A DNA stretch of 64,000 bases from GCF_055900595.2 NZ_CM148325.1, one strand, 5' to 3'; counted from the stretch's first letter, positions 14,344 through 55,572 are shown. A program made the numbers and translations. Notes: generated by a model not told the origin, from the letters alone.

Positions 14344-14444
14344 ATTAACCGTTGAAGTCACAGACTATTTCAGGCATTTCTCAACTCAAAATAACGACAG
14401 CCAACGTGAACTTTATGGCTCTCCAGGATCTGCTTTGTTTTCCA
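14344..14444 (+). other. degenerate duplicate of the oxyS 3' half (relic, not a functional gene call)
   Basis: Roughly 75-80% identity by eye to oxyS 11262..11352 on the same strand (shared blocks TTAACC, TTGAAGTCAC, TTTCTCAACTC, AGCCAACGTGAACTTT, CTCCAGGATC). The terminator stem is eroded. Ends exactly at the kinase stop codon. Confidence 0.6.
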
Positions 14445-15923: not shown

Positions 15924-15939
15924 GATCCCTCCTTAGTTT

Positions 15940-20365: not shown

Positions 20366-20428
20366 AATATTCCTGAATACGACTAAAGGAATTCCGGGTC
20401 AAATTTGACCCGGTGATTTACAGTAAAA

Positions 20429-21433: not shown

Positions 21434-21555
21434 CGTAATTTCCTTAAGAAATAGTTCAGGTGTCAGGAAAACTCGATATAATATCGACCTGACTATTTAT
21501 ATAATTTATAATCCCTTAGGCATTGATTAATAATTTAGACAATAAATAACGCCTA

Positions 21556-22365: not shown

Positions 22366-22806
22366 AGTATCGGTCCGTTATTATCAAATTAGCATGCTTA
22401 TATAATTAACTGTTCCCTCATAAAATAAAGTGATAGGAATCAAGATTCATTTTATAATTATAATCGCAAACAGGAATGGTGATCTTTATCACAAATTAAA
22501 TTGAGAACACTCTACTATTTGACATTACTTTGAGATATCGGTCACTAAATAAGTCTTATTCTGCCATCTAACGAAAAATTTAAATACAAAAACAAAAATA
22601 ATCGGGCATAGCAATCGCTTCCATTCATGACCGAATACGCCCGAATAAAACCGTTTATACCCACTTATCCTCTTTCGTTGCCTTCTTACATGCCTTGAAT
22701 ATTTTACATTTCTTATATTCAGCGTAATTTAGGAAACATAATTTATGAGCAAAAAAAGCCCAAACTCAAAAGTTAAAGTTTATTTATATAATACATACAG
22801 ATTATC

Positions 22807-23511
22807 GTGGAGTTAAAAATGGATATGCTAAAGGAAAAAGTTCTTGCTGCGAATTTATCATTACCCCTTCATCAGTTAGTGACGTTTACCTGGGGAAATG
22901 TTAGTGGTGTTGATCGCGAAAAAGGTGTCATGGTTATTAAACCTTCTGGGGTCGAATACAGCCAAATGGGCATTGCAGATATGGTGGTAGTGGATTTACA
23001 AAGTGGTGAAGTTATTGATGGACACAGGAAACCCTCTTCAGACACCGATACTCATCTGGCGCTATACCGTGCTTTCCCGGATATTGGTGGTATCGTTCAT
23101 ACCCATTCCCGACACGCCACAATATGGGCTCAGGCCGGAAAAGATCTCACGGCCTTTGGGACAACCCACGCTGATTATTTCTACGGCACTATCCCCTGTA
23201 CACGCCCCATGAAGGATGACGAAATTAATGGACAATATGAATATGAAACGGGGCGAGTGATTATTGAAACGTTCAGACAACGAGAAATATCTCCCGCTGA
23301 CATTCCGGCTGTTTTAGTAAACAGTCATGGCCCCTTTGCCTGGGGAACTGATCCCGCGAACGCCGTGCATAACGCCGTTGTACTTGAAGAAATTGCCTAT
23401 ATGAATCTCTTTACACAACAACTACAGCCCCATCTTACGGCTATTCAACAGCCTCTACTGGATAAGCATTTTTTACGCAAGCATGGTGCCAATGCTTATT
23501 ACGGGCAGTAA
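22807..23511 (+). CDS. L-ribulose-5-phosphate 4-epimerase (class II aldolase fold, AraD/SgbE/UlaF family)
   Basis: 234-aa ORF closely resembling AraD ([74 protein letters not shown]), including the conserved metal-binding His residues. Confidence 0.85.
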
Positions 23512-23560
23512 CCCTCTTAGCATGGCCTGGCGTTTTGCCAAGCCATAAATCGCCTAAGAC

Positions 23561-31224: not shown

Positions 31225-32958
31225 ATGCATTCCACAGAAGTCCAGGCTAAACCTCTTTTTAGCTGGAAAGCCCTGGGTTGGGCACTGCTCTACTTTTGGT
31301 TTTTCTCTACCTTGCTACAGGCCATTATTTACATCAGTGGTTATAGTGGCACTAACGGCATTCGCGACTCGCTGTTATTCAGTTCGCTGTGGTTGATCCC
31401 GGTATTCCTCTTTCCGAAGCGGATTAAAATTATTGCCGCAGTAATCGGCGTAGTGCTATGGGCGGCCTCTCTGGCAGCGCTGTGCTACTACGTCATCTAC
31501 GGTCAGGAGTTCTCGCAGAGCGTTCTGTTTGTGATGTTCGAAACCAACACCAACGAAGCCAGCGAGTATTTAAGCCAGTATTTCAGCCTGAAAATTGTGC
31601 TTATCGCGCTGGCCTATACGGCGGTGGCAGTTCTGCTGTGGACACGCCTGCGCCCGGTCTATATTCCAAAGCCGTGGCGTTATGTTGTCTCTTTTGCCCT
31701 GCTTTATGGCTTGATTCTGCATCCGATCGCCATGAATACGTTTATCAAAAACAAGCCGTTTGAGAAAACGTTGGATAACCTGGCATCGCGTATGGAGCCT
31801 GCCGCACCGTGGCAATTCCTGACCGGCTATTATCAGTATCGTCAGCAACTAAACTCGCTAACAAAGCTACTGAATGAAAATAATGCCTTGCCGCCGCTGG
31901 CTAATTTCAAAGATGAATCGGGTAACGAACCGCGCACCTTAGTGCTGGTGATTGGCGAGTCGACCCAGCGTGGACGCATGAGTCTGTACGGTTATCCGCG
32001 TGAAACCACGCCGGAGCTGGATGCGCTGCATAAAACCGATCCGAATCTGACCGTGTTTAATAACGTGGTGACGTCTCGTCCGTACACCATTGAAATCCTG
32101 CAACAGGCGCTGACTTTTGCCAATGAAAAGAACCCGGATCTGTATCTGACGCAGCCGTCGCTGATGAACATGATGAAACAGGCGGGTTATAAAACCTTCT
32201 GGATCACCAACCAGCAGACGATGACCGCCCGCAATACCATGCTGACGGTATTTTCGCGCCAGACCGACAAGCAGTACTACATGAACCAGCAACGTACGCA
32301 GAGTGCGCGTGAATACGACACCAACGTGCTGAAGCCGTTCCAGGAAGTACTGAATGACCCTGCGCCGAAGAAACTGATCATCGTTCATCTGCTGGGTACG
32401 CATATCAAATACAAATACCGCTACCCGGAAAATCAGGGCAAGTTTGATGGCAATACCGATCATGTTCCGCCGGGACTAAGCGCAGAAGAGCTGGAGTCAT
32501 ATAACGATTATGATAACGCTAACCTGTATAACGATCATGTGGTTGCCAGCCTGATTAAAGACTTTAAAGCAGCAGACCCGAACGGTTTCCTGGTTTACTT
32601 CTCTGACCACGGTGAAGAGGTTTACGACACGCCACCGCACAAAACTCAGGGGCGTAATGAAGACAATCCGACGCGCCACATGTACACCATTCCGTTCCTG
32701 CTGTGGACGTCAGAAAAATGGCAAGCGACTCATCCGCGTGATTTCTCGCAGGATGTTGATCGTAAATACAGCCTGGCGGAACTGATCCACACCTGGTCAG
32801 ATTTGGCGGGCTTATCTTACGACGGTTACGATCCAACCCGTTCAGTGGTGAATCCGCAGTTCAAAGAAACTACCCGCTGGATTGGTAACCCGTATAAGAA
32901 AAACGCACTGATCGATTACGACACTCTGCCGTATGGCGATCAGGTGGGTAATCAGTAA
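31225..32958 (+). CDS. eptC: phosphoethanolamine transferase (LPS core heptose modification)
   Basis: 577-aa ORF with an N-terminal five-TM domain and a C-terminal sulfatase-like domain (LVLVIGESTQRGRMSLYGY); syntenic position of yijP/eptC. Confidence 0.9.
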   Translation: MHSTEVQAKPLFSWKALGWALLYFWFFSTLLQAIIYISGYSGTNGIRDSLLFSSLWLIPVFLFPKRIKIIAAVIGVVLWAASLAALCYYVIYGQEFSQSVLFVMFETNTNEASEYLSQYFSLKIVLIALAYTAVAVLLWTRLRPVYIPKPWRYVVSFALLYGLILHPIAMNTFIKNKPFEKTLDNLASRMEPAAPWQFLTGYYQYRQQLNSLTKLLNENNALPPLANFKDESGNEPRTLVLVIGESTQRGRMSLYGYPRETTPELDALHKTDPNLTVFNNVVTSRPYTIEILQQALTFANEKNPDLYLTQPSLMNMMKQAGYKTFWITNQQTMTARNTMLTVFSRQTDKQYYMNQQRTQSAREYDTNVLKPFQEVLNDPAPKKLIIVHLLGTHIKYKYRYPENQGKFDGNTDHVPPGLSAEELESYNDYDNANLYNDHVVASLIKDFKAADPNGFLVYFSDHGEEVYDTPPHKTQGRNEDNPTRHMYTIPFLLWTSEKWQATHPRDFSQDVDRKYSLAELIHTWSDLAGLSYDGYDPTRSVVNPQFKETTRWIGNPYKKNALIDYDTLPYGDQVGNQ

Positions 32959-32977
32959 TTATCAGCCAAGTGCTATT

Positions 32978-33030
32978 TGCCGGATGCGACGCTTGACGCG
33001 TCTTATCCGGCCTACAGATCGCGGCGGTAG
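32978..33030. repeat. REP element
   Basis: TGCCGGATGCGACGCTTGACGCGTCTTATCCGGCCTACA, canonical REP consensus, followed by a partial second unit. Confidence 0.75.
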
Positions 33031-33155: not shown

Positions 33156-34007
33156 ATGTATCACGACGTCAGCTATCTGCTCTCCCGCCTGATCAACGGC
33201 CCGCTGTCCCTGCGCCAGATTTACTTTGCCAGCAGCAACGGCCCGGTGCCCGATCTTGCGTATCAGGTCGATTTTCCACGGCTGGAAATTGTGCTGGAAG
33301 GTGAGTTTGTTGATACCGGCGCTGGAGCAACGTTAGTTCCCGGCGATGTGCTGTACGTTCCCGCTGGTGGCTGGAATTTTCCACAATGGCAAGCCCCCGC
33401 CACTACCTTTAGCGTGCTGTTTGGCAAACAGCAACTCGGCTTCAGCGTCGTGCAATGGGATGGCAAACAATATCAAAATCTGGCGAAGCAACACGTCGCC
33501 CGACGCGGCCCGCGCATTGGTTCTTTTCTGCTACAAACGCTCAATGAAATGCAAATGCAGTCGCAGGAGCAGCAAACGGCCAGACTTATCGTCGCTAGCC
33601 TGCTTAGCCACTGCCGCGATTTGCTCGGCAGCCAAATCCAGACCGCCTCACGTAGCCAGGCACTATTTGAAGCTATTCGCGATTATATCGACGAACACTA
33701 TGCCACCGCGCTTACCCGCGAATCTGTCGCACAGGCGTTCTATATTTCGCCAAATTACCTCTCGCACCTGTTTCAAAAAACGGGGGCCATTGGTTTTAAC
33801 GAATACCTGAATCACACGCGACTGGAACACGCTAAGACGTTATTGAAAGGCTATGACCTGAAGGTAAAAGAAGTGGCGCACGCCTGCGGCTTTGTTGACA
33901 GCAACTACTTCTGCCGTCTGTTTCGTAAAAACACCGAACGCTCGCCGTCGGAATATCGTCGGCAGTACCACAGCCAACTGACAGAAAAACCGACTACTCC
34001 AGAATAA
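33156..34007 (+). CDS. yijO: AraC/XylS-family transcriptional regulator
   Basis: 283-aa ORF with an N-terminal cupin-like domain and a C-terminal AraC HTH; its 3' end overlaps frwD by 14 nt (convergent). Confidence 0.88.
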   Translation: MYHDVSYLLSRLINGPLSLRQIYFASSNGPVPDLAYQVDFPRLEIVLEGEFVDTGAGATLVPGDVLYVPAGGWNFPQWQAPATTFSVLFGKQQLGFSVVQWDGKQYQNLAKQHVARRGPRIGSFLLQTLNEMQMQSQEQQTARLIVASLLSHCRDLLGSQIQTASRSQALFEAIRDYIDEHYATALTRESVAQAFYISPNYLSHLFQKTGAIGFNEYLNHTRLEHAKTLLKGYDLKVKEVAHACGFVDSNYFCRLFRKNTERSPSEYRRQYHSQLTEKPTTPE

Positions 34008-34335
34008 GGTGGGTTTGCTGCGGCGCAGAAAGCACTTTGCGCACCGCGCTCATTACCCGCTGCGGCTCACGCAGGAATGCGTAGATGCTGCATTGCACAT
34101 AGCGGCAATGTTCAAATCGCTCGGCACCGGCAAGCTCGATATCCGTAATTAACAGCGCAACATCCGCCCGACGGATATCCTCGTCCGCTAAACGATTCTC
34201 CGTCCCCAGCGCGCCCTGAGTTTCAATGCTGACGCCCCACTTCTCTATCTGGCACAACTTTTCCAGCCGTTCCGCCGCCATATAAGTATGCGCCACGCCA
34301 CTGACACAGGCGGTTACTGCCACCAGGTATGCCAT
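33994..34335 (-). CDS. frwD: PTS fructose-like EIIB component
   Basis: ORF 33994..34398; the internal start MAYLVAVTACVSGVAHTYMAAE gives 113 aa, the length I recall for FrwD, with the phosphorylatable Cys in the CVSGVAHTYMAAE motif. Confidence 0.9.
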   Translation of the reverse strand: MAYLVAVTACVSGVAHTYMAAERLEKLCQIEKWGVSIETQGALGTENRLADEDIRRADVALLITDIELAGAERFEHCRYVQCSIYAFLREPQRVMSAVRKVLSAPQQTHLILE

Positions 34336-34336
34336 T

Positions 34337-35215
34337 TTAACCTCCCACGGTAACCTGAAATCCGGCCCGTTCTGCCATTTCGCGCATCGTTGCCACATCG
34401 GCTGACGACGGCGCTGGCACCTCTTTCATCGACCATGTTTTCCCCAGCAGACGGTATTTTGGTTCGCCGTACTGGTGAAACGGTAACAGATGGATCTGCC
34501 TGATATTCAGCGGGATCAGCACGTCCAGCGCCTGCTGCATATTCTCCCGGCTGAGTGTGAAACCAGGGATCAGCGGTAAACGCGGGGTCACGTTGACACC
34601 CTCACTCACCAGCAAACGCAAGTTCTCCAGCACGCGTGGCAGGTTCATCTTCACCACATCCCGCGCCTGAGTCACGTCCATAATTTTTAAATCGAACAAC
34701 ACTTCATCGCACAATTTCGCCAGCGGTAACAACTTGCTGGCTGGCGCGTCTCCGGCAGTTTCGATGGCGCATGACACACCCCATAGCCGCAGTCGCTGTA
34801 AAAAACGGGTCGCAAACTCCGCCTGCATTAACACTTCGCCGCCAGAAAGCGTGACGCCACCGCCGGACGCGCGAAAGAAAATGTCATCTTTCATCACTTC
34901 CCGCTCCAGCGCGTCAAGGCTGATATCGCGACCAATCCGTTCAAACGCGCCGGAGGGGCATTCATCCGCATCACGCAAACATTTTGCGCAGTGCAGGCAT
35001 TTCGCCTCTCTGCGCACCGTCTGGATTTTGCCGGAGATCGACTCCGGATTAGCACACCACGGGCAAAGATGCGGGCAGCCTTTAAAAAAGACCACCGTGC
35101 GGATGCCCTCACCGTCATTCAGTGAATAACGCTGAATGTTGAAAATGCGCGCCACGTCATCGCGGCGCGTTTCTACAACGTTACAGCTGATGTGCTGTCC
35201 GGCGGATGATGTCAT
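34337..35215 (-). CDS. pflC: glycyl-radical enzyme activating protein (radical SAM)
   Basis: ORF 34337..35242; the internal start MTSSAGQHISCNV gives 292 aa, the length I recall for PflC. Radical-SAM CPHLCPWC motif plus additional Cys clusters. Confidence 0.9.
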   Translation of the reverse strand: MTSSAGQHISCNVVETRRDDVARIFNIQRYSLNDGEGIRTVVFFKGCPHLCPWCANPESISGKIQTVRREAKCLHCAKCLRDADECPSGAFERIGRDISLDALEREVMKDDIFFRASGGGVTLSGGEVLMQAEFATRFLQRLRLWGVSCAIETAGDAPASKLLPLAKLCDEVLFDLKIMDVTQARDVVKMNLPRVLENLRLLVSEGVNVTPRLPLIPGFTLSRENMQQALDVLIPLNIRQIHLLPFHQYGEPKYRLLGKTWSMKEVPAPSSADVATMREMAERAGFQVTVGG

Positions 35216-37478
35216 CCTGGATCTCCTTCGACAGTTCGACAAAGAAGGCGCTGTATCCGGCTACGCGCACCACCAGCCCGGCATAATCTTGTGGGCGCTG
35301 TTGCGCTTCCCGCAACGTGTCGGCGTTCACCACGTTAAACTGAATGTGTTGTAATTTAAGCTGGGTAAATGCCCGTAAGAAGTCGGCTAGTTTGCGTAAT
35401 CCCGCTTCACCTTCCAGGGTCGCCGGAGTGAATTTCACGTTCAGCAATGTACCGTTAGAAAGCAGCGTGTTATCGAGCTTGCTGACTGATTTCAGTACCG
35501 CCGTTGGTCCTTGTGCATCCTGGCCCAGCATGGGAGACAAACCACCGTCTGCCAGTTGTTCCCCGGCAAAACGGCCGTCTGGCGTCGCACCAACCACCGC
35601 TCCCAACGGGACATGAGCAGAAACGGTATACGATCCTGGCGTGAAGTAGCCACCGCGCGGGTTCTGGTATTTTTCCACTTCTTTGCAGTAATGACGCAGG
35701 AGTTCAGCGCTAATGTTATCCACCTCGTCGATATCGTTACCGTATTTCTCAAAGCGGTTAATTAAGCGAGCGCGGACTTTTTCGCCTTCTGGCGTTGCGA
35801 AGTTGGCTTTTAATACCGACAGCAATTCGTCAAAACTTAAACGCTGTTGCTCAAAAACCATCCCTTTCAACGCATGGAGAGAATCGCTCAGGTTGGCGAT
35901 ACCGATCCCCTGTACGCCGGAGAAGTTATAACGCGCGCCGCCATCGGTAATATCGCGGCCTTTTTCCAGACAATCGCTGATAAACGATGAGAGCAGCGGT
36001 ACAGGAGCCCAGTCACGATGGCCGATATCACAAATATTGCTGCCTTCAACCATCAGGGTGATGTAGTGGCTGATCTTGACGCGGATCTGTTCCAGCAAAC
36101 CTTCATAACTCAGCGCAGCATTACCTTCATTTTCATGCAGGCAGATTTCCATCACTTTCAGCAGGTTAAACATCGCGATGTCATGCAGACCGTAGGTTCT
36201 GCCGGGAATAGATAATTCCACGCACCCCACTACGGAATAGTCGCGCGCATCTTCCAGCGAAACGCCACGGTTGAGGAACGCTGGCACCACCACTTCATCG
36301 TTGAAGATTTGCGGAATACCCGTGCCGAGGCGGATGGTTTCTGCGGTTTTCATCAGGAACGGCGTGTCGATCAAGGCGTTAGTGCGCACGCCGAGGTTCG
36401 GTTGCGGCAATTGCACGCTTTGATAAGCGTCAAGGCAAAGGAACGAAAGCACGTTCACCGCGCTACGTCCGTTCTCGGTTAAACCGCCGAGCAGTGCGGT
36501 ATAGCCGGTCGGGAAACCTGCGAAATAACGCGCACTGCGGGTGGAGCGTAAAAGCACGATGTCATTGCATTTCACCCATAAAGATTCGAGCAGTTCTTTC
36601 AGGAACGCCGGATCTTCGCCCTGGGTTAATGATGCCTGATAGAATGGCAACATATACTGGTCGAAGCGCCCTAAAGACAGCGAGCTGGCGTTGGATTCGT
36701 ATTGCAGAATGATGTTCATGTACCAGAACAACTGGCACGCCTGCCAGAATGTCTGTGGCTTATGTTCGGCGTTATGGCGGGAGATCTCCGCCATAGTCAG
36801 CAGTTCTTCGCGACGCTGGGCATCAGTGCAGTTTGCCGCCATCGTTTCCGCCAGTTCGGCGTAACGCAAAATGTGTTTCTGCGAGGCTTCGAGCAATAAC
36901 AGCGCAGCCTGATAAAAGTGATTCTCCGGCTGTTGCTGGCAATGTTGCTGCATCTGCGCCACCAGCTCACCCAGCCCGTGATTCAGCAGGCGCGGGTAAT
37001 CAATAATGATGTGCCCCTGGCCTTTATCTGTCTGGTTGATACTGAAAATCTGCGTGCTGGTCGCGGCTTTTACTTCATCCGTCATCTGCCCGTTAATAAA
37101 ATCTTTCATCGAGCGTTTTTCCCAGTATGGGAACAGCTCTTCGCGGTAGATACGTTTATCTTCTTCACTAATGGCGAAGCGGTCCTGCGGTCGCGTCGGA
37201 AATTGATCCAGCTCTTTCAGCAGCCAGTAAGGGTCCATTTCCGGCGACATAATCCCGGCGCGCGGTTTTACGGTACGGTTACCAGCAATCAGTTCTTCAT
37301 CACGAATCGAAATTTCAACATGTTCAAGGATATACGCTGTTGCTTTCGCCCGGCGCAATATCACTGGTTCGCCTTCGGTTTGCCGATGGCTGGCGGTATA
37401 AAGCAGCGCCCGCTCCAGCGAGATTTCACGGGTATTAGCAAACAGTGCAGTTTTAAGGCGAGAGATACGATTCGTCAT
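35181..37478 (-). CDS. pflD: pyruvate formate-lyase-like glycyl radical enzyme
   Basis: 765-aa ORF with the C-terminal glycyl radical motif (VRVAGYSAFF); its 3' end overlaps the pflC start by 35 nt. Confidence 0.92.
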   Translation of the reverse strand: MTNRISRLKTALFANTREISLERALLYTASHRQTEGEPVILRRAKATAYILEHVEISIRDEELIAGNRTVKPRAGIMSPEMDPYWLLKELDQFPTRPQDRFAISEEDKRIYREELFPYWEKRSMKDFINGQMTDEVKAATSTQIFSINQTDKGQGHIIIDYPRLLNHGLGELVAQMQQHCQQQPENHFYQAALLLLEASQKHILRYAELAETMAANCTDAQRREELLTMAEISRHNAEHKPQTFWQACQLFWYMNIILQYESNASSLSLGRFDQYMLPFYQASLTQGEDPAFLKELLESLWVKCNDIVLLRSTRSARYFAGFPTGYTALLGGLTENGRSAVNVLSFLCLDAYQSVQLPQPNLGVRTNALIDTPFLMKTAETIRLGTGIPQIFNDEVVVPAFLNRGVSLEDARDYSVVGCVELSIPGRTYGLHDIAMFNLLKVMEICLHENEGNAALSYEGLLEQIRVKISHYITLMVEGSNICDIGHRDWAPVPLLSSFISDCLEKGRDITDGGARYNFSGVQGIGIANLSDSLHALKGMVFEQQRLSFDELLSVLKANFATPEGEKVRARLINRFEKYGNDIDEVDNISAELLRHYCKEVEKYQNPRGGYFTPGSYTVSAHVPLGAVVGATPDGRFAGEQLADGGLSPMLGQDAQGPTAVLKSVSKLDNTLLSNGTLLNVKFTPATLEGEAGLRKLADFLRAFTQLKLQHIQFNVVNADTLREAQQRPQDYAGLVVRVAGYSAFFVELSKEIQDDIIRRTAHQL

Positions 37479-37528
37479 GAGGAACTCCTGTGGGAAAGCG
37501 AACCCGCCCTTACGGGCGGGATAAGAAC

Positions 37529-37849
37529 TTAAGCGGTTTGCGCCAGGTGAGCTTCAATTTTGCTCATAATGGCATCAGCACGTTTTACCGCGTCGCTGAT
37601 GTTGACGCGCACAATGGTCTTGCCAGCAAAACGCTCTTCAAACTTGATGCCGATATCTTTGGTCAGAATCACCATATCGGCGCTCGCCACGTCTTCCGCA
37701 GTCAGTTCATTTTCCAGACCAATCGAGCCCTGGGTTTCTACTTTCACTTCCCAGCCTTTCGCTTTCGCGGCACTTTCCAGCGCCTCTGCCGCCATATAAG
37801 TATGGGCAACACCAGATGGACACGCGGTTACTGCAATAATTTTCGTCAT
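37529..37849 (-). CDS. frwB: PTS fructose-like EIIB component
   Basis: 106-aa ORF (MTKIIAVTACPSGVAHTYMAAEALE...), an EIIB-Fru domain paralogous to frwD. Confidence 0.92.
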   Translation of the reverse strand: MTKIIAVTACPSGVAHTYMAAEALESAAKAKGWEVKVETQGSIGLENELTAEDVASADMVILTKDIGIKFEERFAGKTIVRVNISDAVKRADAIMSKIEAHLAQTA

Positions 37850-37863
37850 GGCTCGTTCCTCAA

Positions 37864-38943
37864 TTAATTAATTTCAAAATCCAAATCCAGGTCGTCTTCT
37901 TTTTCATCAGTCGAAGACCCATTTTTACGCGCCAGACTTTTCAGCACGTTCACGCAGACTGCCGTCACCACTGCTCCGACAGCCACTGCGGCGATATAAC
38001 CCAGCTTGCCTTCAACCACCGGCAGCACAATCAGACCACCCCAGCCTGCATAGCACTGCGCACCGACCAGCGCCGCAGTTACTGCACCACAAACTGAACC
38101 GACCATGATGGAAGGAATGACACGCAGCGGATCGGCAGCGGCGAAAGGAATCGCCCCTTCAGTAACACCAACGCACCCCATCACCAGCGCCGCTTTGCCG
38201 GTTTCGCGCTCTTCTGCAGAGAAATTTTTACGACCAATCAGCGTCGCCAGCCCCATGCCCAACGGTGGAACACAAATCCCAACAGCGGCAATAGCCACCA
38301 CGGTATAAACACCCTGAGCAACGCAAATCAGCATGAAGGCATAGGCCACTTTGTTAACCGGACCACCCATATCGAACGCCAGCATCAGCCCCATGATCAC
38401 CGCCAGCATAACAATGCTGCCCTGCTGCATCCCCTGTAGCCACTGAGTCAGGCTGTTGGTCAACGCACCCACCGGCTCGCCCAGTCCCCACATCATGACA
38501 CCAGCGGTAATCAGTGTGCCGACGATCGGAATGATGAAGATTGGCATCACCGAGCGCAGAACTTTATGCACCGGAATTTTCTTCAGATAATGCACCACGA
38601 TGCCGCCGATAATCCCTGCGATCAGCGCACCAAAGAAGCCCGCGCCAAAGCTGTTACCAACCCAGGCACCGATGGCGCACGGAGCCAGCGCAGAACGTTC
38701 TGCAATGGAATAACCGATGTACGCTGCGAGGAAAGGCACCATCAGCGTCAACCCCGCAACGCCGATATCAAACAGTTTTTTTAGATTCGGATCGGCTACG
38801 GCATCCGGCACTGCGCCTTTGCCATACAAAATGACGGAAACCTCCAGCAAAATACCGCCCGATACCACGAAGGGAATCATATGTGAAACGCCCGTCATTA
38901 AATGCTGACGGGTATTTTTCAGGATCTGCACCAACTCATTCAT
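37864..38943 (-). CDS. frwC: PTS fructose-like EIIC permease component
   Basis: ORF 37864..38964; the internal start MNELVQILKNTRQHLMTGVSHMIPFVV gives 359 aa, the length I recall for FrwC; polytopic membrane protein. Confidence 0.9.
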   Translation of the reverse strand: MNELVQILKNTRQHLMTGVSHMIPFVVSGGILLEVSVILYGKGAVPDAVADPNLKKLFDIGVAGLTLMVPFLAAYIGYSIAERSALAPCAIGAWVGNSFGAGFFGALIAGIIGGIVVHYLKKIPVHKVLRSVMPIFIIPIVGTLITAGVMMWGLGEPVGALTNSLTQWLQGMQQGSIVMLAVIMGLMLAFDMGGPVNKVAYAFMLICVAQGVYTVVAIAAVGICVPPLGMGLATLIGRKNFSAEERETGKAALVMGCVGVTEGAIPFAAADPLRVIPSIMVGSVCGAVTAALVGAQCYAGWGGLIVLPVVEGKLGYIAAVAVGAVVTAVCVNVLKSLARKNGSSTDEKEDDLDLDFEIN

Positions 38944-39251
38944 AAGCTGCTCCCGGGCTTGCAAAAGCCCATGTCCATATTTTTGATGGAGGAAACAATA
39001 GGCAATCGCAGGCGGAGCAAACAGTGGATAAAAAGGCCATTTACTGGACTTTTGTAATATCAGTACAAAAATGCGATCCGCCTCATAACTTGCGATACCC
39101 CGGAAGCATGCCGCAGAACGGCGTCTTGTGAGACGCGTCGCAAATTGACGGTTACATTACATTTGTCCAGCTTTTGGCAGATTTGTCACATGGCAGGCCG
39201 TTGCCGTGCGCTCTTATCCTGTAAACAGAGAACCGTACCGGGAGAAAGGCA

Positions 39252-41753
39252 ATGGCCCTGATTGTGGAATTTATTTGTGAGCTACCTAACGGCGTACATG
39301 CCCGTCCGGCAAGCCACGTTGAAACGCTGTGTAATACTTTTTCATCACAAATTGAGTGGCATAACCTGCGCACTGACCGCAAGGGCAACGCCAAAAGCGC
39401 CCTTGCGCTGATTGGCACCGATACGCTGGTGGGCGATAGCTGCCAGTTACTGATTTCCGGGGCCGATGAACAGGAAGCGCATCAGCGTTTAAGCCAATGG
39501 CTGCGCGATGAATTTCCCCACTGCGACGCGCCGCTGGCGGAAATAAAATCTGACGAACTGGAGCCGCTGCCGGTATCATTAACCAACCTGAATCCGCGTA
39601 TTATCCGCGCCCGCACCGTATGCAGTGGTAGCGCAGGCGGCATTCTGACGCCAATCTCTTCTTTAGATCTCAACGCGCTGGGTAACCTCCCCGCAACCAA
39701 CGGCGTTGACGCCGAGCAATCCGCGCTGGAAAACGGCCTGACACTGGTACTGAAAAATATTGAGTTTCGTCTGCTGGATAGCGACGGTGCTACCAGCGCG
39801 ATTCTGGAAGCGCACCGATCCCTGGCTGGCGATACTTCCCTGCGCGAACATTTACTGGCAGGCGTCAGCGCCGGATTAAGCTGCGCCGAAGCAATTGTCG
39901 CCAGTGCGAATCACTTTTGCGAAGAGTTCGCCCGTTCCAGCAGCAGCTACCTGCAAGAACGCGCGCTGGATGTGCGCGATGTCTGCTTCCAGTTACTCCA
40001 GCAAATCTACGGCGAGAAACGCTTTCCGGCACCGGGCAAGCTAACGCAGCCCGCCATTTGTATGGCGGATGAACTGACCCCTAGCCAGTTCCTCGAACTG
40101 GATAAAAATCACCTCAAAGGATTGTTGCTCAAAAGCGGCGGCACCACCTCACACACGGTGATCCTTGCCCGTTCGTTCAACATTCCGACGCTGGTTGGTG
40201 TGGATATTGATGCCCTTACTCCGTGGCAGCATCAAACGATTTATATCGACGGCAACGCTGGGGCGATTGTGGTTGAGCCAGGAGAAGCCGTAGCCCGTTA
40301 TTATCAGCAAGAAGCCCGCGTACAGAACGCCCTTCGTGAGCAACAGCGTGTCTGGCTGACCCAACAAGCCCGTACCGCTGACGGTATCCGCATTGAAATT
40401 GCCGCTAACATCGCTCACTCCGTCGAAGCGCAGGCCGCATTCGGCAATGGTGCGGAAGGCGTTGGTTTGTTCCGCACTGAAATGCTCTATATGGATCGCA
40501 CCAGTGCACCGGGCGAAAGCGAGCTGTACAACATTTTTTGTCAGGCGCTGGAGTCCGCCAACGGACGCAGCATTATTGTGCGCACTATGGATATTGGCGG
40601 TGACAAACCCGTTGATTATCTGAATATTCCCGCAGAGGCAAACCCGTTCCTCGGTTATCGCGCCGTACGTATTTATGAAGAGTACGCCTCGTTGTTTACC
40701 ACGCAGCTACGATCGATCCTGCGCGCCTCCGCTCATGGCAGCCTGAAAATCATGATCCCGATGATCTCTTCAATGGAAGAGATCTTATGGGTGAAAGAAA
40801 AACTGGCAGAAGCTAAACAGCAGCTGCGTAACGAACACATTCCGTTTGATGAGAAAATCCAGCTCGGTATCATGCTTGAAGTGCCGTCAGTAATGTTCAT
40901 CATCGATCAATGCTGTGAAGAGATTGATTTCTTTAGTATTGGTAGTAATGACCTGACGCAATATCTGCTGGCAGTGGATCGCGATAACGCTAAGGTAACT
41001 CGTCACTACAACAGCCTGAATCCGGCATTCTTACGAGCGCTTGATTACGCCGTGCAGGCAGTGCATCGCCAGGGCAAATGGATTGGTCTGTGCGGTGAAC
41101 TGGGGGCGAAAGGTTCCGTGCTGCCGTTGCTGGTCGGTTTAGGGCTGGATGAGTTGAGCATGAGTGCACCGTCAATTCCGGCGGCGAAAGCGCGAATGGC
41201 GCAACTTGATAGCCGCGAATGCCGCCAGTTGCTCAACCAAGCAATGGCCTGCCGTACTTCGCTGGAAGTGGAACACCTGCTGGCGCAATTCCGCATGACG
41301 CAACAGGATGCACCGCTGGTCACCGCCGAGTGCATCACGCTGGAAAGCGACTGGCGCAGCAAAGAAGAAGTGCTCAAAGGCATGACCGATAACCTGCTGC
41401 TGGCGGGCCGCTGCCGCTATCCGCGTAAACTGGAAGCCGACTTGTGGGCACGCGAGGCCGTTTTCTCTACCGGTCTGGGCTTTAGTTTTGCCATTCCCCA
41501 CAGCAAATCAGAACACATTGAGCAATCCACCATCAGTGTAGCGCGTCTGCAAGCGCCGGTGCGCTGGGGCGATGATGAAGCACAATTCATCATTATGTTA
41601 ACCCTGAACAAACACGCTGCGGGCGATCAGCATATGCGCATTTTCTCGCGCCTCGCTCGCCGCATCATGCACGAAGAATTCCGTAACGCGCTGGTTAACG
41701 CCGCCTCTGCCGACGCTATCGCCAGCCTGCTGCAACATGAACTGGAACTGTAA
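39252..41753 (+). CDS. ptsA: multiphosphoryl transfer protein (HPr - Enzyme I - EIIA-Fru fusion)
   Basis: 833-aa ORF with an N-terminal HPr-like domain ([10 protein letters not shown]), a central PEP-utilising Enzyme I domain ([21 protein letters not shown]) and a C-terminal EIIA-like domain. Confidence 0.9.
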
Positions 41754-41764
41754 AAGGAAACATC

Positions 41765-42427
41765 ATGGAACTGTATCTGGACACCGCTAACGTCGCAGAA
41801 GTCGAACGTCTGGCACGCATATTCCCGATTGCCGGGGTGACAACTAACCCGAGCATTATCGCGGCCAGCAAGGAGTCCATCTGGGAAGTGCTGCCGCGTT
41901 TGCAAAAAGCGATTGGTGATGAGGGTATTTTGTTTGCTCAGACCATGAGTCGTGACGCACAGGGTATGGTGGAAGAAGCGAAGCGCCTGCGCGACGCCAT
42001 TCCGGGCATTGTGGTGAAAATCCCGGTAACTTCCGAAGGTCTTGCCGCCATTAAAATGCTGAAAAAAGAGGGTATTACTACACTTGGCACCGCTGTATAT
42101 AGCGCCGCACAAGGGTTATTAGCCGCGCTGGCAGGGGCAAAATATGTTGCTCCGTATGTTAACCGCGTCGACGCCCAGGGCGGTGACGGCATTCGTACGG
42201 TTCAGGAGCTGCAAGCGCTGTTGGAAATGCACGCGCCAGAAAGCATGGTGCTGGCTGCCAGCTTTAAAACACCGCGTCAGGCGCTGGATTGTTTGCTGGC
42301 AGGATGTGAGTCCATCACCCTACCCTTAGATGTAGCGCAACAAATGCTCAACACTCCTGCGGTAGAGTCGGCTATAGAGAAGTTTGAGCACGACTGGAAT
42401 GCCGCATTTGGCACTACTCATCTCTAA
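41765..42427 (+). CDS. fsaB: fructose-6-phosphate aldolase 2 (transaldolase-like)
   Basis: 220-aa ORF ([31 protein letters not shown]...) with the Schiff-base Lys region ([11 protein letters not shown]). Confidence 0.92.
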
Positions 42428-42437
42428 AGGAGCAATT

Positions 42438-43541
42438 ATGGACCGCATTATTCAATCACCGGGTAAATACATCCAGGGCGCAGATGTCATTAATCGTCTG
42501 GGCGAGTACCTGAAGCCGCTGGCAGAACGCTGGTTAGTGGTGGGTGACAAATTTGTTTTAGGTTTTGCTCAATCCACTGTCGAGAAAAGCTTTAAAGATG
42601 CTGGACTGGTAGTAGAAATTGCGCCGTTTGGCGGTGAATGTTCGCAAAATGAGATCGACCGTCTGCGTGGCATCGCGGAGACTGCGCAGTGTGGCGCAAT
42701 TCTCGGTATCGGTGGCGGAAAAACCCTCGATACTGCCAAAGCGCTGGCACATTTCATGGGTGTTCCGGTAGCGATCGCACCGACTATTGCCTCTACCGAC
42801 GCGCCGTGCAGCGCGCTGTCTGTTATCTACACCGATGATGGTGAGTTTGACCGCTATTTGCTGTTGCCAAATAACCCGAATATGGTCATTGTCGACACCA
42901 AAATCGTCGCGGGCGCACCTGCACGTCTGTTAGCGGCGGGTATCGGCGATGCGCTGGCGACCTGGTTTGAAGCGCGTGCTTGCTCTCGTAGCGGTGCGAC
43001 CACAATGGCGGGCGGTAAGTGTACTCAGGCAGCGCTGGCGCTGGCTGAACTGTGCTACAACACGCTGCTGGAAGAAGGCGAAAAAGCGATGCTTGCCGCC
43101 GAACAGCATGTAGTAACTCCAGCACTGGAACGCGTGATTGAAGCGAACACCTATTTGAGCGGCGTTGGCTTTGAAAGCGGTGGGCTGGCTGCGGCGCACG
43201 CGGTGCATAACGGCCTGACTGCAATCCCTGATGCCCATCACTATTATCATGGTGAAAAAGTGGCATTCGGTACGCTGACGCAGCTGGTTCTGGAAAATGC
43301 GCCGGTGGAAGAAATCGAAACCGTAGCTGCACTTAGCCATGCGGTAGGTTTGCCAATAACCCTCGCTCAACTGGATATTAAAGAAGATGTCCCGGCGAAA
43401 ATGCGGATTGTGGCAGAAGCGGCATGTGCAGAAGGTGAAACCATCCACAACATGCCTGGCGGCGCGACGCCAGATCAGGTTTACGCCGCACTGCTGGTAG
43501 CCGACCAGTACGGTCAGCGTTTCCTGCAAGAGTGGGAATAA
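42438..43541 (+). CDS. gldA: glycerol dehydrogenase (iron-containing alcohol dehydrogenase family)
   Basis: ORF 42384..43541; the internal start [24 protein letters not shown] gives 367 aa, the length I recall for GldA; [13 protein letters not shown]-binding motif. Confidence 0.92.
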
Positions 43542-49237: not shown

Positions 49238-50797
49238 TTATTTAATATCTTTCACGCGCATACCGTTGATCTGTTCATCCGTGATGGTGTTACCCGCTTT
49301 AAAGTAATCAACCACCGCGTGATAAACGTAATAACCGCCCGTCGTATTGCGCGCTTTACCCTCGGTAAACGCGGTAAAACCATCTCCACCATCAGCAAGG
49401 AAACTCTGAGTAGCAATGTGGTAAACCGTCGCATCTTCAATCGGTTTGCCATTCAGCGTCAGCGAGATAACCCGCTGACCAACCGGCTTGCTGCTGTCGT
49501 ACTTCATTTCCAGGCCTTTCGATACCTGTAAAACGCCATTACTTAAACTTGCGCCGTGTTCCATCAAACCGCGTAATTGTTTACCCGTGAGTTCCATCGT
49601 CACCAGTTCGTTGGGGAACGGGAAGGTACTGATGACGCCACCCATCGTAATTGCACCCGCCGGGATCTCATTGCGAATCCCACCAGAGTTGGTTAACGCC
49701 AACTGGGTATTTTTACCCGCCGCTACCAGTAAAGCGTCCGCCGCCAGGTTCCCCAGGGATGCCGATTCACCATAGGCACGTTTTAATTCAACTGGCGATT
49801 GCGCCACCGTTTGCTGCACGACTTCATCCAGCTTTTTATTCCAACTATCAATCACCTGTTTTGTTTGCGCATCGGGCTTCCACTCGTCGGCGTAAAGGGT
49901 TTTAAGCTCGAAGTTTTTCACCGTAAAAGTGTGCGGTTTCTCTTTGTAGTCGAGAACCAGTTTACCCACATCAATCCCACCGCTGTCAGTGGAGAGGATG
50001 AGCGTATTGCCGACTTTAATCGGTTCCGGCGTACCCACATGTGCATGCCCGGTGATCAAAATATCCAGCCCTTTCACCTGACTTGCCGTCTGAATATCTT
50101 TATCCAGTGCGCGGCGCACATCTGTGCCCCCCATACTGGACTGGCGGGCCGGAACACCTTCGTGAATCAGCGCAACGGTCAAATCAACCTTGCCTTTGAG
50201 TTCATCGATATAACGTTGTAGCCATTTAATTTCATCACGCGCCTCAATACCCACTCGCGTTGCCGCAGATACCGTATCATTAAAGGCAAATACACCGTGC
50301 AAACCTATAACACCAATTTTCACGCCGTCTTTTTCAATAATGGTATATGGCTTATCCCAGAATGATTTACTGCTGTTCTGATAAAAAACATTACCCTGCA
50401 CAATCGGGAATTGTGCCTGACTCAACTGTAATAACGTATTGTCCCAGCCGTGATCAAATTCATGATTACCTATAGTGGCCGCATCGAACGGCATGGTATT
50501 CATAATATCGATAATCGCCTTGCCTTTAGTCAGGCTGCTGATATACGGCCCGGTAAAATAGTCACCCGCATCAAAAAACCAGGTCGCTTTGTTTTTAGCT
50601 TTTTCTTGTTTAACAAGCGTAGTGATATTTGCCCAGCCGCCAATATCCCGTTTACCCTCAGCAATCCACGGCACTTTATAGGGCTCTACATGTGCGTGGA
50701 GGTCATTGGTATAAATAATGGTGACATCTTTGGCGCAGGCCCAAAACGGCAGTGTTAATGCGATACCCGCAGCAAGCATTTTAATTTTCATAAACAA
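49238..50797 (-). CDS. secreted 5'-nucleotidase / UDP-sugar hydrolase family metallophosphoesterase (UshA-like), paralog 1
   Basis: 519-aa ORF with a signal peptide ([18 protein letters not shown]), calcineurin-like motifs ([30 protein letters not shown]) and a C-terminal 5'-nucleotidase domain with the FPF nucleobase clamp. Start may be M3 or M7. Confidence 0.8.
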
Positions 50798-50923
50798 TCC
50801 CTTCCAGTGAGATAAAGGATTGCTACATTACGTTCTGAAAGGCTTTTTTATGTGAGAATACTCACATCCAGAGGCAATAACTGTAGGACAAAATCGACGA
50901 CCTTATGAAATCGTTGGTGATAT

Positions 50924-52051
50924 ATGTCAAATCTGTTTGCGATTAATGTCTGTAAAACGTTCGGTTGTCGAAATTTGGGATTGGCCTCATCGGAAGATTA
51001 CAGTTGGCCAGACTATAAACTGGGTTTTCCGGCACTGCACTGCCAGGCATGCGGAAGTTACCCCCCTTTGTTTGATGAACAACAATTTCGTGACTGGTTG
51101 TCAGTTCACATGACTGCGTGTGCCATAGAAACAGGGCATTTTTGTCCATCATGCTATTGTAAAGAAAAGATTTTTTATGGCCACAACCCGCATGGAACAC
51201 AACGCGTTCAATGCCGTTCATGCAAAAAAGTCTGGACTCCGAAACAGCAGCCAGCAAGAGAAATTACGTATCCCCAGTCCATTGAAACCGTTCAACTGTT
51301 CATGCCCTTTCAAGGAGCCAGCGCACTACAAAAGCTCTATGTTTTAGTCAGTCTTGACGCCACTCGTGGCAACATCCTTCATCTCTCCACGAATTATACG
51401 CAACATCAGACAGGAGACAGTCTGCGGTACAGTTACAGAGGCAATACAGAACCAACTGAGCACCATAGCGATATTGTGCAGAGGGTAGATATGCGTGAAG
51501 CGCAATTCTTGCGCCGGAGCCAGTTCGATGAAATTCAGTATGGCAGTGCTGTGCTCAAGCGCAATGGCAAGGGAGCCATACTACGCCCGGTTATCACGGC
51601 TCACGGGCATTTCAGAATACTGAAAATCCGCTTTCCACATGTCAAAACGCATATCATTTCACACGAATGTTTTCTGAGAGGCGCAATTATTACAGCCTGG
51701 GCAGATCAGTTCCGCCAACAACAAGGCGAACTTTGGTTCGTAGAAGAAGAAATCAGCGACCGTAACGCTGATATTCCCTGGCATTTTCAGGGAACGACAT
51801 ACCATGGTTGGTGGCAAAATCAGTGGCAACGCTGGGGGCAGGGGAATAACAGCAAGATGGTCTGCCTGCTCACAGGAGTCTCCTTAGAAAGGGGCGCAAA
51901 TGTTTCTCTGGCAACCAGTCGTTGCTTTATCACATGGCTGACAGACCAACACGACTTTACCCAAAGCGCGTTATTATCCGCAGGTCGCGTAACGAAAATG
52001 CTGACCTCACTGGCGTTAAAATACAATGAATCGCTCACTCCATCTTGTTAG
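50924..52051 (+). CDS. hypothetical Cys-rich protein with a transposase-type zinc-ribbon motif
   Basis: 375-aa ORF. N-terminal Cys pairs (CKTFGC, HCQACG, FCPSCYC, QCRSCKKVW); the segment CPSC...GTQRVQCRSCKKVW resembles the IS1/IS1595 transposase zinc ribbon. No recognisable DDE triad or HTH seen by eye. Confidence 0.5.
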   Translation: MSNLFAINVCKTFGCRNLGLASSEDYSWPDYKLGFPALHCQACGSYPPLFDEQQFRDWLSVHMTACAIETGHFCPSCYCKEKIFYGHNPHGTQRVQCRSCKKVWTPKQQPAREITYPQSIETVQLFMPFQGASALQKLYVLVSLDATRGNILHLSTNYTQHQTGDSLRYSYRGNTEPTEHHSDIVQRVDMREAQFLRRSQFDEIQYGSAVLKRNGKGAILRPVITAHGHFRILKIRFPHVKTHIISHECFLRGAIITAWADQFRQQQGELWFVEEEISDRNADIPWHFQGTTYHGWWQNQWQRWGQGNNSKMVCLLTGVSLERGANVSLATSRCFITWLTDQHDFTQSALLSAGRVTKMLTSLALKYNESLTPSC

Positions 52052-52280
52052 TCAATACACTCGACAAACGACCATAAATTAATGGGATCACTATTTCTCA
52101 TTTAATTAAATATATGAATGTATGACTGAAAAATATAATCACAGTCAATGTTTAATTAATAACATTATTTGTTACTAAGATCACATAATACTTTCCTGAC
52201 CTATGCTTACATAAAAATAAGACACGGAGTTCCTTTTATTTAAATAATTCAACCAATGTAACAACCCCTATCAAGGAGGG

Positions 52281-53834
52281 ATGATGAGAACTGTATTTAC
52301 GACTTTATCAGTCATATTCAGCGTGATGTTTTCTCACAGTATACTAGCTCAGGACGTTACTATTTATTATACGAATGATATTCACGCACATGTCAATCCG
52401 GCAAAAATTCCCGCTGTTGATAAGAACAGACTTGTAGGTGGTATGGCTAATATTGCAGGCATCGTTAATGAAGCGAAGAAAAAAAACAAAGATGTCTTTT
52501 TCTTTGATGCAGGCGACTATTTTACCGGTCCGTATATCAGTACCCTGACCAAAGGTGAAGCTATTATTGATATCATGAACACCATGCCCTTTGATGCGGT
52601 GTCCGTTGGTAATCACGAGTTCGATCACGGCGTGCCCAATATGGTATCTCAGTTATCAAAAGCAAAATTCCCCATTCTGCTGGGAAATATTTACTACACC
52701 GATACAAATAAACCAGTTTGGGATCATCCGTGGACTATTATCGAAAAAGATGGTTTAAAGATTGGTGTGATTGGATTGCATGGTGCATTCGCTTTCTATG
52801 ATACAGTCGCGGCAAAAGCACGTGAAGGCGTAGAAGCCAGAGACGAAATTAAATATTTAAATAAAGCACTTGCAGAATTAAAAGGTAAAGTCGACATTAC
52901 CGTTTTGCTAATTCACGAAGGTGTTCCGGCGCGTCAATCAAGCTTTGGTAGTAAAGATGTGGAGCGGCTACTACAGGCAGATATTGAGACAGCTAAAAAA
53001 GTGAATGGTGTTGATGTCTTAATTACCGGTCACGCACATGTCGGAACACCGCAACCAATAAAAGTTAATAACACATTAATTGTATCTACCGATGCATACG
53101 GCACCGACATCGGAAAACTTGTGCTTGATTACAATCCGAAAACGAAGAAAATTGATAGTTATAATGGTGAGTTAATCACCATCTTCGCAGATCAATTTAA
53201 ACCTGACACCATCGTTCAAAATACTATCGATAAATGGAGTGCAAAGCTTAACAAAATAACACAGGAAGTTGTCGGCCATTCTCCCGTAGTTTTAACACGT
53301 GAGTATGGCAGTTCTTCTTCTACCGGTAACCTTATTCTTGATGCAATGATGGAAAAAACACCAGATGCCATTGCCGGATTTCAAAATAGCGGTGGGATGC
53401 GAGCTGATTTTCCTAAAGGTGATATCACGCTGGGAGATGTTATTAGCACATTCCCCTTTAATAATGACCTCATCGAGATGGATTTGACGGGCCGCGATCT
53501 CAAATCGTTGATGACGCATGCAACCAATCTAACTAACGGTGTGTTACAGGTTTCAAAAAGCGTTGCGGTTGTCTATGACAGCAAAAAACCACTGAACCAA
53601 CGGTTAATCTCTTTCACCATTAACGGCAAACCCGTGGAAGATAATCAAACATATCGTATTGTCACGCACTCCTTTTGTGCCAGTGGTGGTGACGGTTTTG
53701 AAGCATTTTTGAATGGAAAAAATGTGAAGACGATACCGGGAACAACCTCGGCGGAATCTATCATCGATTATTTCAAAAATCATAAACCTGTCACCCCAGA
53801 CTTAACTAAACGAGTAATGGACGTCGCCAAATAA
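52281..53834 (+). CDS. secreted 5'-nucleotidase family metallophosphoesterase (UshA-like), paralog 2
   Basis: 517-aa ORF with a signal peptide (MMRTVFTTLSVIFSVMFSHSILA-QD) and the same catalytic motifs (YTNDIHAH, GDYFTGP, GNHEFD, GHAHVG, TFPF); the most divergent of the three copies. Confidence 0.8.
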   Translation: MMRTVFTTLSVIFSVMFSHSILAQDVTIYYTNDIHAHVNPAKIPAVDKNRLVGGMANIAGIVNEAKKKNKDVFFFDAGDYFTGPYISTLTKGEAIIDIMNTMPFDAVSVGNHEFDHGVPNMVSQLSKAKFPILLGNIYYTDTNKPVWDHPWTIIEKDGLKIGVIGLHGAFAFYDTVAAKAREGVEARDEIKYLNKALAELKGKVDITVLLIHEGVPARQSSFGSKDVERLLQADIETAKKVNGVDVLITGHAHVGTPQPIKVNNTLIVSTDAYGTDIGKLVLDYNPKTKKIDSYNGELITIFADQFKPDTIVQNTIDKWSAKLNKITQEVVGHSPVVLTREYGSSSSTGNLILDAMMEKTPDAIAGFQNSGGMRADFPKGDITLGDVISTFPFNNDLIEMDLTGRDLKSLMTHATNLTNGVLQVSKSVAVVYDSKKPLNQRLISFTINGKPVEDNQTYRIVTHSFCASGGDGFEAFLNGKNVKTIPGTTSAESIIDYFKNHKPVTPDLTKRVMDVAK

Positions 53835-53868
53835 AATATCATTTATCAGTCTATTTATTTAACAAGGA

Positions 53869-55494: not shown

Positions 55495-55504
55495 TAAAAA
55501 AATT

Positions 55505-55540
55505 ATAATGCCATTCATTCACTGAATGGCATTATTTTTC
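55505..55540 (+). terminator. intrinsic terminator after nucleotidase paralog 3
   Basis: Hairpin AATGCCATTCA-TTCAC-TGAATGGCATT followed by ATTTTTC. Confidence 0.7.
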
Positions 55541-55572
55541 TCTAAATCAACAATAAATAATGAGATATATTT

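Follow-up and report, generated by a model that had tools for sequence, protein, structure and literature searches.

The locus examined here lies in a stretch of 64,000 nucleotides from GCF_055900595.2 NZ_CM148325.1 (‘the window’ in what follows), and comprises the operon frwC-frwB-pflD-pflC-frwD and the divergent genes ptsA-fsaB-gldA. Its closest described relatives are two gene clusters of Escherichia coli K-12, namely frwCB-pflDC-frwD with ptsA-fsaB-gldA (b3945–b3953), and ybiV-ybiW-ybiY with fsaA. Both clusters encode a glycyl radical enzyme (PflD or YbiW), an activase and a fructose-6-phosphate aldolase (FSA). According to section 5.1 of a review (PMC12441222), which cites Ma et al. 2024 (J Am Chem Soc 146:26187, doi 10.1021/jacs.4c07718), intestinal bacteria break down 1,5-anhydroglucitol and 1,5-anhydromannitol anaerobically. 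A phosphotransferase system (PTS) makes the 6-phosphates of both anhydro-sugars; PflD then cleaves 1,5-anhydromannitol-6-phosphate to 1-deoxyfructose-6-phosphate, YbiW cleaves 1,5-anhydroglucitol-6-phosphate to the same product, and both cleavages require the glycyl radical (the same section). The two phosphorylated substrates are C2 epimers, and they would yield one product because C2 becomes the ketone. FsaA and FsaB are said to split 1-deoxyfructose-6-phosphate into glyceraldehyde-3-phosphate and hydroxyacetone, and GldA reportedly reduces the hydroxyacetone to 1,2-propanediol. Both steps are consistent with the enzymes concerned, because FSA takes hydroxyacetone as a donor and GldA is annotated as a propanediol dehydrogenase.

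We consider the locus in the window to be, with a probability of about 80%, the 1,5-anhydro-D-mannitol branch of this E. coli ‘radical-mediated glycolysis’. It is an already known and characterized system, present here in allelic form. The biochemistry of the core E. coli pathway was solved in 2024, and the locus opens no new question; what it calls for is correction, since public annotation is outdated and those who read from annotation keep flagging the locus as unassigned. A sequence-only reading of the window, which preceded this analysis, took the substrates of PflD and of the Frw PTS to be unclear, a statement that is superseded by the published substrate assignment for PflD as the review reports it. 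Medicine has some interest in the use of anhydro-polyols by gut bacteria, since 1,5-anhydroglucitol and its relatives serve as clinical markers of glycaemia, and cause neutropenia in glycogen storage disease Ib and in G6PC3 deficiency (PMC12441222).

Comparison with E. coli K-12

Nine genes of the window correspond to the K-12 locus in order, orientation and length, and the alignment with K-12 over the 9548 nucleotides (nt) that frwD to gldA occupy is gapless. The two loci differ only as alleles do, at 410 positions (95.7% identity). Across eight genes, 35 of 3055 residues are changed (FrwD, 2; PflD, 10 of 765, or ∼99% identity; FrwB, 0; GldA, 1), and the proteins are 98–100% identical. All eight genes begin with ATG, have the K-12 length and lack internal stop codons; the frameshifts or stops that would have spoken for decay are thus absent. 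Synonymous divergence (dS) from K-12 is 0.187 and non-synonymous divergence (dN) 0.0053, a dN/dS of 0.028, and the ratio is below 0.06 in each gene. Of 5426 complete E. coli genomes, 5425 have the locus, and in 5393 no less than 80% of its length is found. It is under selection and is not decaying, and the label ‘cryptic’ applied to it by the sequence-only reading is, in the sense of decay, contradicted by the dN/dS value. The synteny with K-12 that the same reading proposed to check was borne out in full.

The window itself comes from a minority lineage of E. coli. The span 33994–41753 is matched at 99% identity or more in eight of the 5426 complete genomes, and two other stretches of the window are so matched in 11 and eight. 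Strains with such matches include isolates from human stool (Mali and the Gambia), a dog isolate and AST85; most genomes match at 95–99%. A dS of 0.19 against K-12 strikes us as high for a comparison within one species.

The ybiW locus offers a second comparison within K-12. The two loci are alike in their glycyl radical enzyme, activase and FSA aldolase, in the fold family of the enzyme and, according to the review, in 1-deoxyfructose-6-phosphate as product. PflD and YbiW are only 38% identical, however, and act on C2 epimers. The K-12 ybiW locus also lacks a PTS, gldA and an AraC-type gene, and has instead a sugar phosphatase gene, ybiV.

PflD and its activase

Proteins were assigned to domains and families from their Pfam and NCBIfam profile scores, read against the cut-off of each model. 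PflD has a PFL-like domain (PF02901, 703.7 bits) and a Gly_radical domain (PF01228, 108.2 bits). It falls within the PFL2/glycerol-dehydratase subfamily (TIGR01774; Table 1) and, within that, in its own orthologue group (NF007437, 1719 versus 1109). The glycine loop is RVAGY (R738-V-A-G741-Y) and the catalytic loop GCVE (G-C419-V-E421). Among structures in the PDB, the top match is 8yjo, ‘Probable dehydratase PflD’, over the full length (1721 bits); next comes 8id0, deposited as ‘formate C-acetyltransferase’ (1053 bits), and then the B12-independent glycerol dehydratase (647 bits); a diol dehydratase (601 bits) is another of the near matches. The YbiW entries, 8id7 and 8yjn, are likewise named ‘probable dehydratase’.

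Pyruvate formate-lyase (PFL) is more distant. PflD does not reach the PFL equivalog model TIGR01255 (120.9 bits versus a cut-off of 994.2), and its match to PflB (118 bits) is confined to the C-terminal glycyl-radical region. The Cys–Cys dyad of PFL was not found in the catalytic loop, which has one Cys and a Glu instead, the Cys-x-Glu arrangement of eliminases. The formate channel FocA is a binding partner of PflB and TdcE but not of purified PflD (PMC5600444). What PflD shares with PflB and TdcE is the superfamily, the C-terminal glycyl-radical domain and activation by a radical-SAM (S-adenosylmethionine) protein; it differs from them in the restriction of their similarity to the C-terminus, in the absence of the dyad and of FocA binding, and in not sharing their formate chemistry. 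By profile and motif, then, PflD is a glycerol-dehydratase-type glycyl radical enzyme and not a formate-lyase. RefSeq (Prokaryotic Genome Annotation Pipeline) and NCBIfam NF007437 name it ‘formate C-acetyltransferase’, and PflC ‘[formate-C-acetyltransferase]-activating enzyme’. We regard the former as a legacy label, given that the subfamily model is passed, the PFL model is failed, the Cys–Cys pair is missing and FocA is not bound. To call PflD a pyruvate formate-lyase homologue, as had been done from the sequence, is accurate for the superfamily but misses the closer class, as the scores against glycerol dehydratase and PflB make plain.

Of the solved structures to which another substrate is assigned, those of the B12-independent glycerol and propanediol dehydratases (1r8w and 5i2a) come nearest. 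They have the Gly loop and the Cys-x-Glu loop in common with PflD, and by analogy the logic of a ketyl-radical 1,2-elimination is probably common to them as well. The leaving groups differ: these dehydratases release water, whereas in PflD it would be the ring ether oxygen of a sugar phosphate that leaves, and the ring opens. Their genomic partners differ, too. PflD is found with a PTS and an aldolase, rather than with aldehyde-processing or microcompartment genes.

PflC carries the radical-SAM cluster motif CX3CX2C at C47, C51 and C54 and passes TIGR02494 (260.7 versus 174.35). Activases of its subfamily usually have two ferredoxin-like motifs; PflC has a single further group of four cysteines (C73, C76, C79 and C86) after the cluster motif. 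Across genera, it is much less conserved than its substrate protein (73–78% identity, versus 91–92% for PflD).

The phosphotransferase system, FsaB and GldA

PtsA is a fusion of three PTS domains, HPr (residues 7–84), enzyme I (EI; 123–653) and EIIA_2 (690–829), as delimited by Pfam. Its relay residues are, by motif, His-16 (GVHAR) in HPr, His-301 (GGTTSH) in EI and His-750 (IPH) in EIIA. The two EIIB proteins, both of the fructose type, carry Cys-10 in the motifs CPSGVAHT (FrwB) and CVSGVAHT (FrwD), so that a phosphorylatable residue, assigned by motif only, is present at every step of the relay (EI, HPr, EIIA and both EIIBs). With FrwC as the one EIIC, this is the phosphotransfer chain that the sequence-only reading described; Pfam, NCBIfam and the motifs agree upon it. 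RefSeq and NCBIfam name the Frw proteins ‘fructose’ or ‘fructose-like’ PTS components, and FrwC does belong to the fructose subfamily of EIIC proteins (TIGR01427, 298.1 versus 157.55). Its score against the IIC portion of MngA, the mannosyl-glycerate PTS (227 bits), is nearly as good as that against FruA, a likeness that would fit a manno-configured pyranoid substrate. FrwC would, by this comparison and by its gene neighbours, be the permease for 1,5-anhydromannitol.

FsaB has the Schiff-base lysine, Lys-85, in a VVKIP context, and matches FSA structures in the PDB. FSA uses hydroxyacetone as a donor; as late as 2020 its role in physiology was described as ‘enigmatic’, and fsaB is reported to be expressed at low levels under laboratory conditions (PMC7767278). 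GldA is annotated as a glycerol/1,2-propanediol dehydrogenase (NF047954).

Gene linkage in other organisms

The association of these genes extends beyond E. coli. In Salmonella enterica the whole arrangement is kept, with proteins 78–96% identical to those of the window. In Edwardsiella tarda (GG739633.1, 5033–14389), fsa-ptsA, frwC-frwB-pflD-pflC-frwD and the AraC-type gene form one block in an unrelated neighbourhood, lying between uvrC/pgsA and ato-like genes; gldA was not found within 10 kb of it. The Edwardsiella PflD is 91% identical to that of the window, and the DNA is about 77–78% identical to E. coli, nearly as close as that of Salmonella. Because the surroundings are unrelated and the DNA is so close, these comparisons suggest that the block moves as a unit, by horizontal transfer. 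Small hypothetical open reading frames (ORFs) and an McrBC fragment also flank the Edwardsiella block.

A first search for homologues returned only proteins from the Enterobacterales (at least 89% identity), and a library clustered at 50% held a single cluster of PflD orthologues. More distant contexts came from a second search, seeded with a fragment of 57% identity. In Vibrio harveyi, orthologues of all nine genes are grouped about an orthologue of PflD. Its identity to PflD is 71% over residues 2–599 and 84% over residues 600–765, and its identity to YbiW is 34%. The identities of its neighbours are 64% (PtsA), 65% (FrwC), 72% (FrwB), 58% (FrwD), 52% (PflC), 41% (FSA), 53% (a GldA-like iron-containing alcohol dehydrogenase) and 51% (a YijO-like protein). 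On a metagenomic contig (L011), genes for EIIA, EIIB and EIIC, the last an FrwC orthologue (54%), and for a DeoR-type regulator adjoin those for the enzyme, its activase and FSA. A metagenome-assembled genome of Clostridium (L010) has the enzyme and activase with an HPr gene. The enzyme gene is called as two pieces in all three (Vibrio, L010 and L011), probably owing to frameshifts or assembly errors, so we take them as evidence of linkage and not of activity. Representatives of the nearest other clusters gave no useful gene context (one lay on a contig of 3.8 kb, and one gene was truncated). Taken together, the recurrent linkage supports a role of the Frw PTS in supplying PflD, and the inclusion of YijO in the module.

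In Vibrio and Clostridium alike, the cluster contains a GFO/IDH/MocA oxidoreductase, an HbpS-like protein, an NAD-dependent epimerase-family protein and an HAD phosphatase; in Vibrio there is a mannose-6-phosphate isomerase in addition. To the GFO/IDH/MocA family belongs the 1,5-anhydrofructose reductase of Sinorhizobium, which makes 1,5-anhydromannitol. That reaction is mentioned in the review (PMC12441222). It may be, then, that 1,5-anhydrofructose is the natural substrate upstream in these organisms; we offer this as a lead, and not as a result.

Proposed pathway

From the conserved linkage of the genes we infer that the Frw PTS is the PTS that makes anhydromannitol 6-phosphate. Phosphate would pass from phosphoenolpyruvate to His-301 in the EI domain of PtsA, from there to His-16 of HPr and to His-750 of EIIA, and on to Cys-10 of FrwB, FrwD or both, and would be transferred to 1,5-anhydromannitol as this crosses the membrane through FrwC, giving 1,5-anhydromannitol-6-phosphate. 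PflC, by what is known of its family, would use S-adenosylmethionine to generate the radical at Gly-741 of PflD. The chemistry that we envisage for ring opening is that of the glycyl-radical diol dehydratases, except that the leaving group would be an alkoxide: the glycyl radical would convert Cys-419 to a thiyl radical that takes the hydrogen from C2, and the resulting ketyl radical, assisted by Glu-421, would expel the ring oxygen from C1. Return of the hydrogen would then give open-chain 1-deoxyfructose-6-phosphate. FsaB reportedly cleaves this, by way of a Schiff base that would form on Lys-85, to glyceraldehyde-3-phosphate and hydroxyacetone, and GldA is said to turn the hydroxyacetone into 1,2-propanediol with NADH, a step that would balance the NADH formed as glyceraldehyde-3-phosphate enters glycolysis. 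Expression of the genes is probably anaerobic, subject to catabolite control through a CRP-like site and dependent on the adjacent regulator, YijO.

Alternative readings

Several points weigh against the assignment of the locus to 1,5-anhydromannitol. The alleles of the window carry 10 substitutions in PflD and 11 in PtsA relative to K-12, although none falls in the motifs checked. What we propose for YijO, CRP and a hairpin (described below) draws upon conservation of sequence only, and the FsaB and GldA steps, like the growth phenotypes, are those reportedly described by Ma et al. 2024. In the Clostridium genome, no Frw-type EIIC was found within 9 kb of the enzyme. The K-12 ybiW locus, having no PTS of its own, shows that the sister pathway can do without a dedicated one. 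And the review, in the part that deals with this pathway, speaks of ‘a PTS’ and leaves Frw unnamed (PMC12441222), so that 1,5-anhydromannitol might enter through another. PflD, PflC, FsaB and GldA could, in that event, act as published while anhydromannitol is taken up by a general PTS such as that for mannose or glucose, and Frw and PtsA could serve another substrate, be it fructose or a different analogue of a sugar, or a regulatory phosphorelay. This is possible, but unlikely. The genes for EIIC and EIIB are interspersed with pflD and pflC, or adjoin them, on the same strand and at the close spacing described below; the interleaving persists in Edwardsiella and Vibrio in spite of the rearrangement of other genes; a fructose-type PTS adjoins the enzyme on contig L011; and the likeness of FrwC to the mannosyl-glycerate IIC suits a manno-configured pyranoid.

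The remaining alternatives depart further from the anhydromannitol assignment. One could read ptsA-fsaB-gldA as chiefly a dihydroxyacetone and glycerol module, unrelated to frw-pflDC, in which FsaB condenses dihydroxyacetone with glyceraldehyde-3-phosphate and GldA interconverts glycerol and dihydroxyacetone. Overexpressed fsaB and gldA do support growth on dihydroxyacetone (PMC6643234), and GldA, as its NCBIfam name records, is an established glycerol dehydrogenase. Yet the genes are not induced by dihydroxyacetone, removal of ptsA is without effect on growth on it and the Km of FSA for it is ∼30 mM (PMC6643234), while FSA and a GldA-like dehydrogenase travel with the PflD orthologue in Vibrio, as FSA does in Edwardsiella and on L011; we find this reading very unlikely. 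The names in RefSeq and NCBIfam point instead to a PTS specific for fructose and, coupled to it, PflD as a second pyruvate (2-keto-acid) formate-lyase yielding formate and acyl-CoA, and a report cited in PMC6643234 ties PtsA to anaerobic fructose catabolism. This is largely refuted, and hardly tenable, in view of the failure of PflD against TIGR01255, the confinement of its PflB match to the C-terminus, its Cys-x-Glu in place of Cys–Cys, its indifference to FocA (PMC5600444), the different activity now published for it (PMC12441222, section 5.1) and its deposited structure. That the locus is a decaying remnant without current function, for which the low laboratory expression of fsaB (PMC7767278) might be cited, has almost nothing to commend it: the signal of selection contradicts it, reading frames are intact, dN/dS is 0.028, all but one of the complete genomes have the locus, and the catalytic and phosphorylation motifs are all kept.

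Control region, YijO and the intergenic hairpin

The region between frwC and ptsA differs from K-12 at 2.3% of sites, ∼8-fold below the synonymous divergence of 0.187. When E. coli, Salmonella and Edwardsiella are aligned, long conserved blocks appear in it, among them TTTTGTAATATCAGTA and TACATTACATTTGTCCAG...GCAGATTTGTCACATGGC. A CRP-like site, TGTGA-N6-TCGCA, lies within the region; its half-sites are conserved in the three-genus alignment and its spacer varies. Across the 64-kb window, where 0.31 matches would be expected, the CRP-like pattern is found at two loci. The second is a perfect palindrome, TGTGAGAATACTCACA, at 50851–50866, inside the island at 49238–56433 (see below). A consensus scan of the frwC–ptsA region revealed no consensus sigma-70 promoter (and fewer sites overall than in shuffled sequences), as is expected for promoters that depend on an activator. 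Sigma-54 and FNR sites were considered for the conserved blocks and dropped, the consensus matches being poor on inspection.

YijO has the C-terminal double helix–turn–helix of AraC/XylS proteins (PF12833, HTH_18, 77.1 bits; PF00165, HTH_AraC, 67.4 bits). An AraC-type gene is kept beside frwD in Salmonella, in the different neighbourhood of Edwardsiella and in V. harveyi (51% identity), from which YijO is the probable regulator of the module. FrwD is the second and faster-evolving EIIB, and is always tail-to-tail with the AraC-type gene. One could imagine, on this basis, that the Frw PTS is a dedicated importer whose FrwD senses phosphorylation state and controls YijO, so that there is no induction until substrate draws down the private relay of PtsA. 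We think this improbable. Were it true, it would explain why the locus has an EI–HPr–EIIA fusion of its own, separate from PtsI and HPr.

Between frwB and pflD, the minus strand encodes a hairpin, CCCGCCC-GUAA-GGGCGGG (−18.2 kcal/mol; z, −2.7), followed by a weak U-tract. K-12 keeps the stem by means of a G–U wobble, and has the loop GCAA. The hairpin is possibly a partial terminator or an element of mRNA stability. Rfam has no match within the locus; the only match is to naRNA4, a nucleoid-associated RNA derived from repetitive extragenic palindromic sequences, and lies upstream of yijO at 32942–33012 (+). It is below threshold (37.3 bits, against a gathering score of 59.5), overlaps the final 17 nt of eptC (31225–32958) and reaches into the eptC–yijO spacer.

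Organization of the locus

Gene coordinates (Table 1) were taken from the list of ORFs, from the RefSeq annotation of a genome 99.9% identical and from the annotation of K-12 MG1655. On the minus strand, the genes from frwC to frwD are separated by 14, 50, −35 and 1 nt (pflC and pflD overlap by the 35), and on the plus strand those from ptsA to gldA by 11 and 10 nt. Each gene is preceded by a Shine–Dalgarno-like sequence. This spacing, together with the Shine–Dalgarno-like sequences, fits two divergent operons, and ptsA-fsaB-gldA is documented as one operon, its members being described as anaerobic genes (PMC6643234). The identities, order and divergent arrangement of the genes given by the sequence-only reading are upheld by the ORFs, by both annotations and by Pfam and NCBIfam. 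Its span, 33994–41753, runs exactly from the stop codon of frwD to that of ptsA; fsaB and gldA, which it also named, lie beyond the end.

Table 1. Features of the frw–pfl locus and its flanks, in window coordinates (scores are in bits, followed by the model cut-off)
Feature	Position	Strand	Description
yijO	33156–34007	+	AraC-family regulator, probable regulator of the module; convergent with frwD, overlapping the 3′ end of frwD by 14 nt
frwD	33994–34335	−	second PTS EIIB, 113 aa; NF007747, 224.6 versus 153
pflC	34337–35215	−	radical-SAM activase, 292 aa; NF007483, 622 versus 326
pflD	35181–37478	−	glycyl radical enzyme, 765 aa; TIGR01774, 1344.7 versus 678.2
GC hairpin with GNRA loop	37503–37520	−	between the frwB stop and the pflD start; terminator-like match
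frwB	37529–37849	−	PTS EIIB, 106 aa; NF007783, 210 versus 135
frwC	37864–38943	−	fructose-family PTS EIIC, 359 aa; NF007787, 715 versus 426
Divergent control region, frwC/ptsA	38944–39251	.	308 nt; CRP-like site at 39127–39142
ptsA	39252–41753	+	HPr–EI–EIIA (Fru-type) fusion, 833 aa; TIGR01417, 480.6 versus 341.7
fsaB	41765–42427	+	fructose-6-phosphate aldolase 2, 220 aa; TIGR00875, 351.5 versus 245.95
gldA	42438–43541	+	glycerol/L-1,2-propanediol dehydrogenase, 367 aa; NF047954, 752.8 versus 700

Other regions of the window

Two further islands are present in the window. An accessory sugar-utilization island of ∼12 kb (11393–23512) lies between oxyR and argH, genes that adjoin one another in K-12. 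It encodes a major facilitator superfamily transporter, ManD, an FGGY kinase, an L-ribulose-5-phosphate 3-epimerase, a four-gene ATP-binding cassette sugar transporter, a DeoR-type regulator and an AraD-like 4-epimerase. Coverage of the window from 1 to 25000 reaches 80% in only 146 of the 5426 complete E. coli genomes. The other island (49238–56433) lies between metF and metL, and contains three paralogous genes for a ‘bifunctional metallophosphatase/5′-nucleotidase’, a hypothetical gene and a gene for a Tsx-like nucleoside channel; the stretch from 43542 to 64000 is covered to at least 80% in only 658 of the same genomes.

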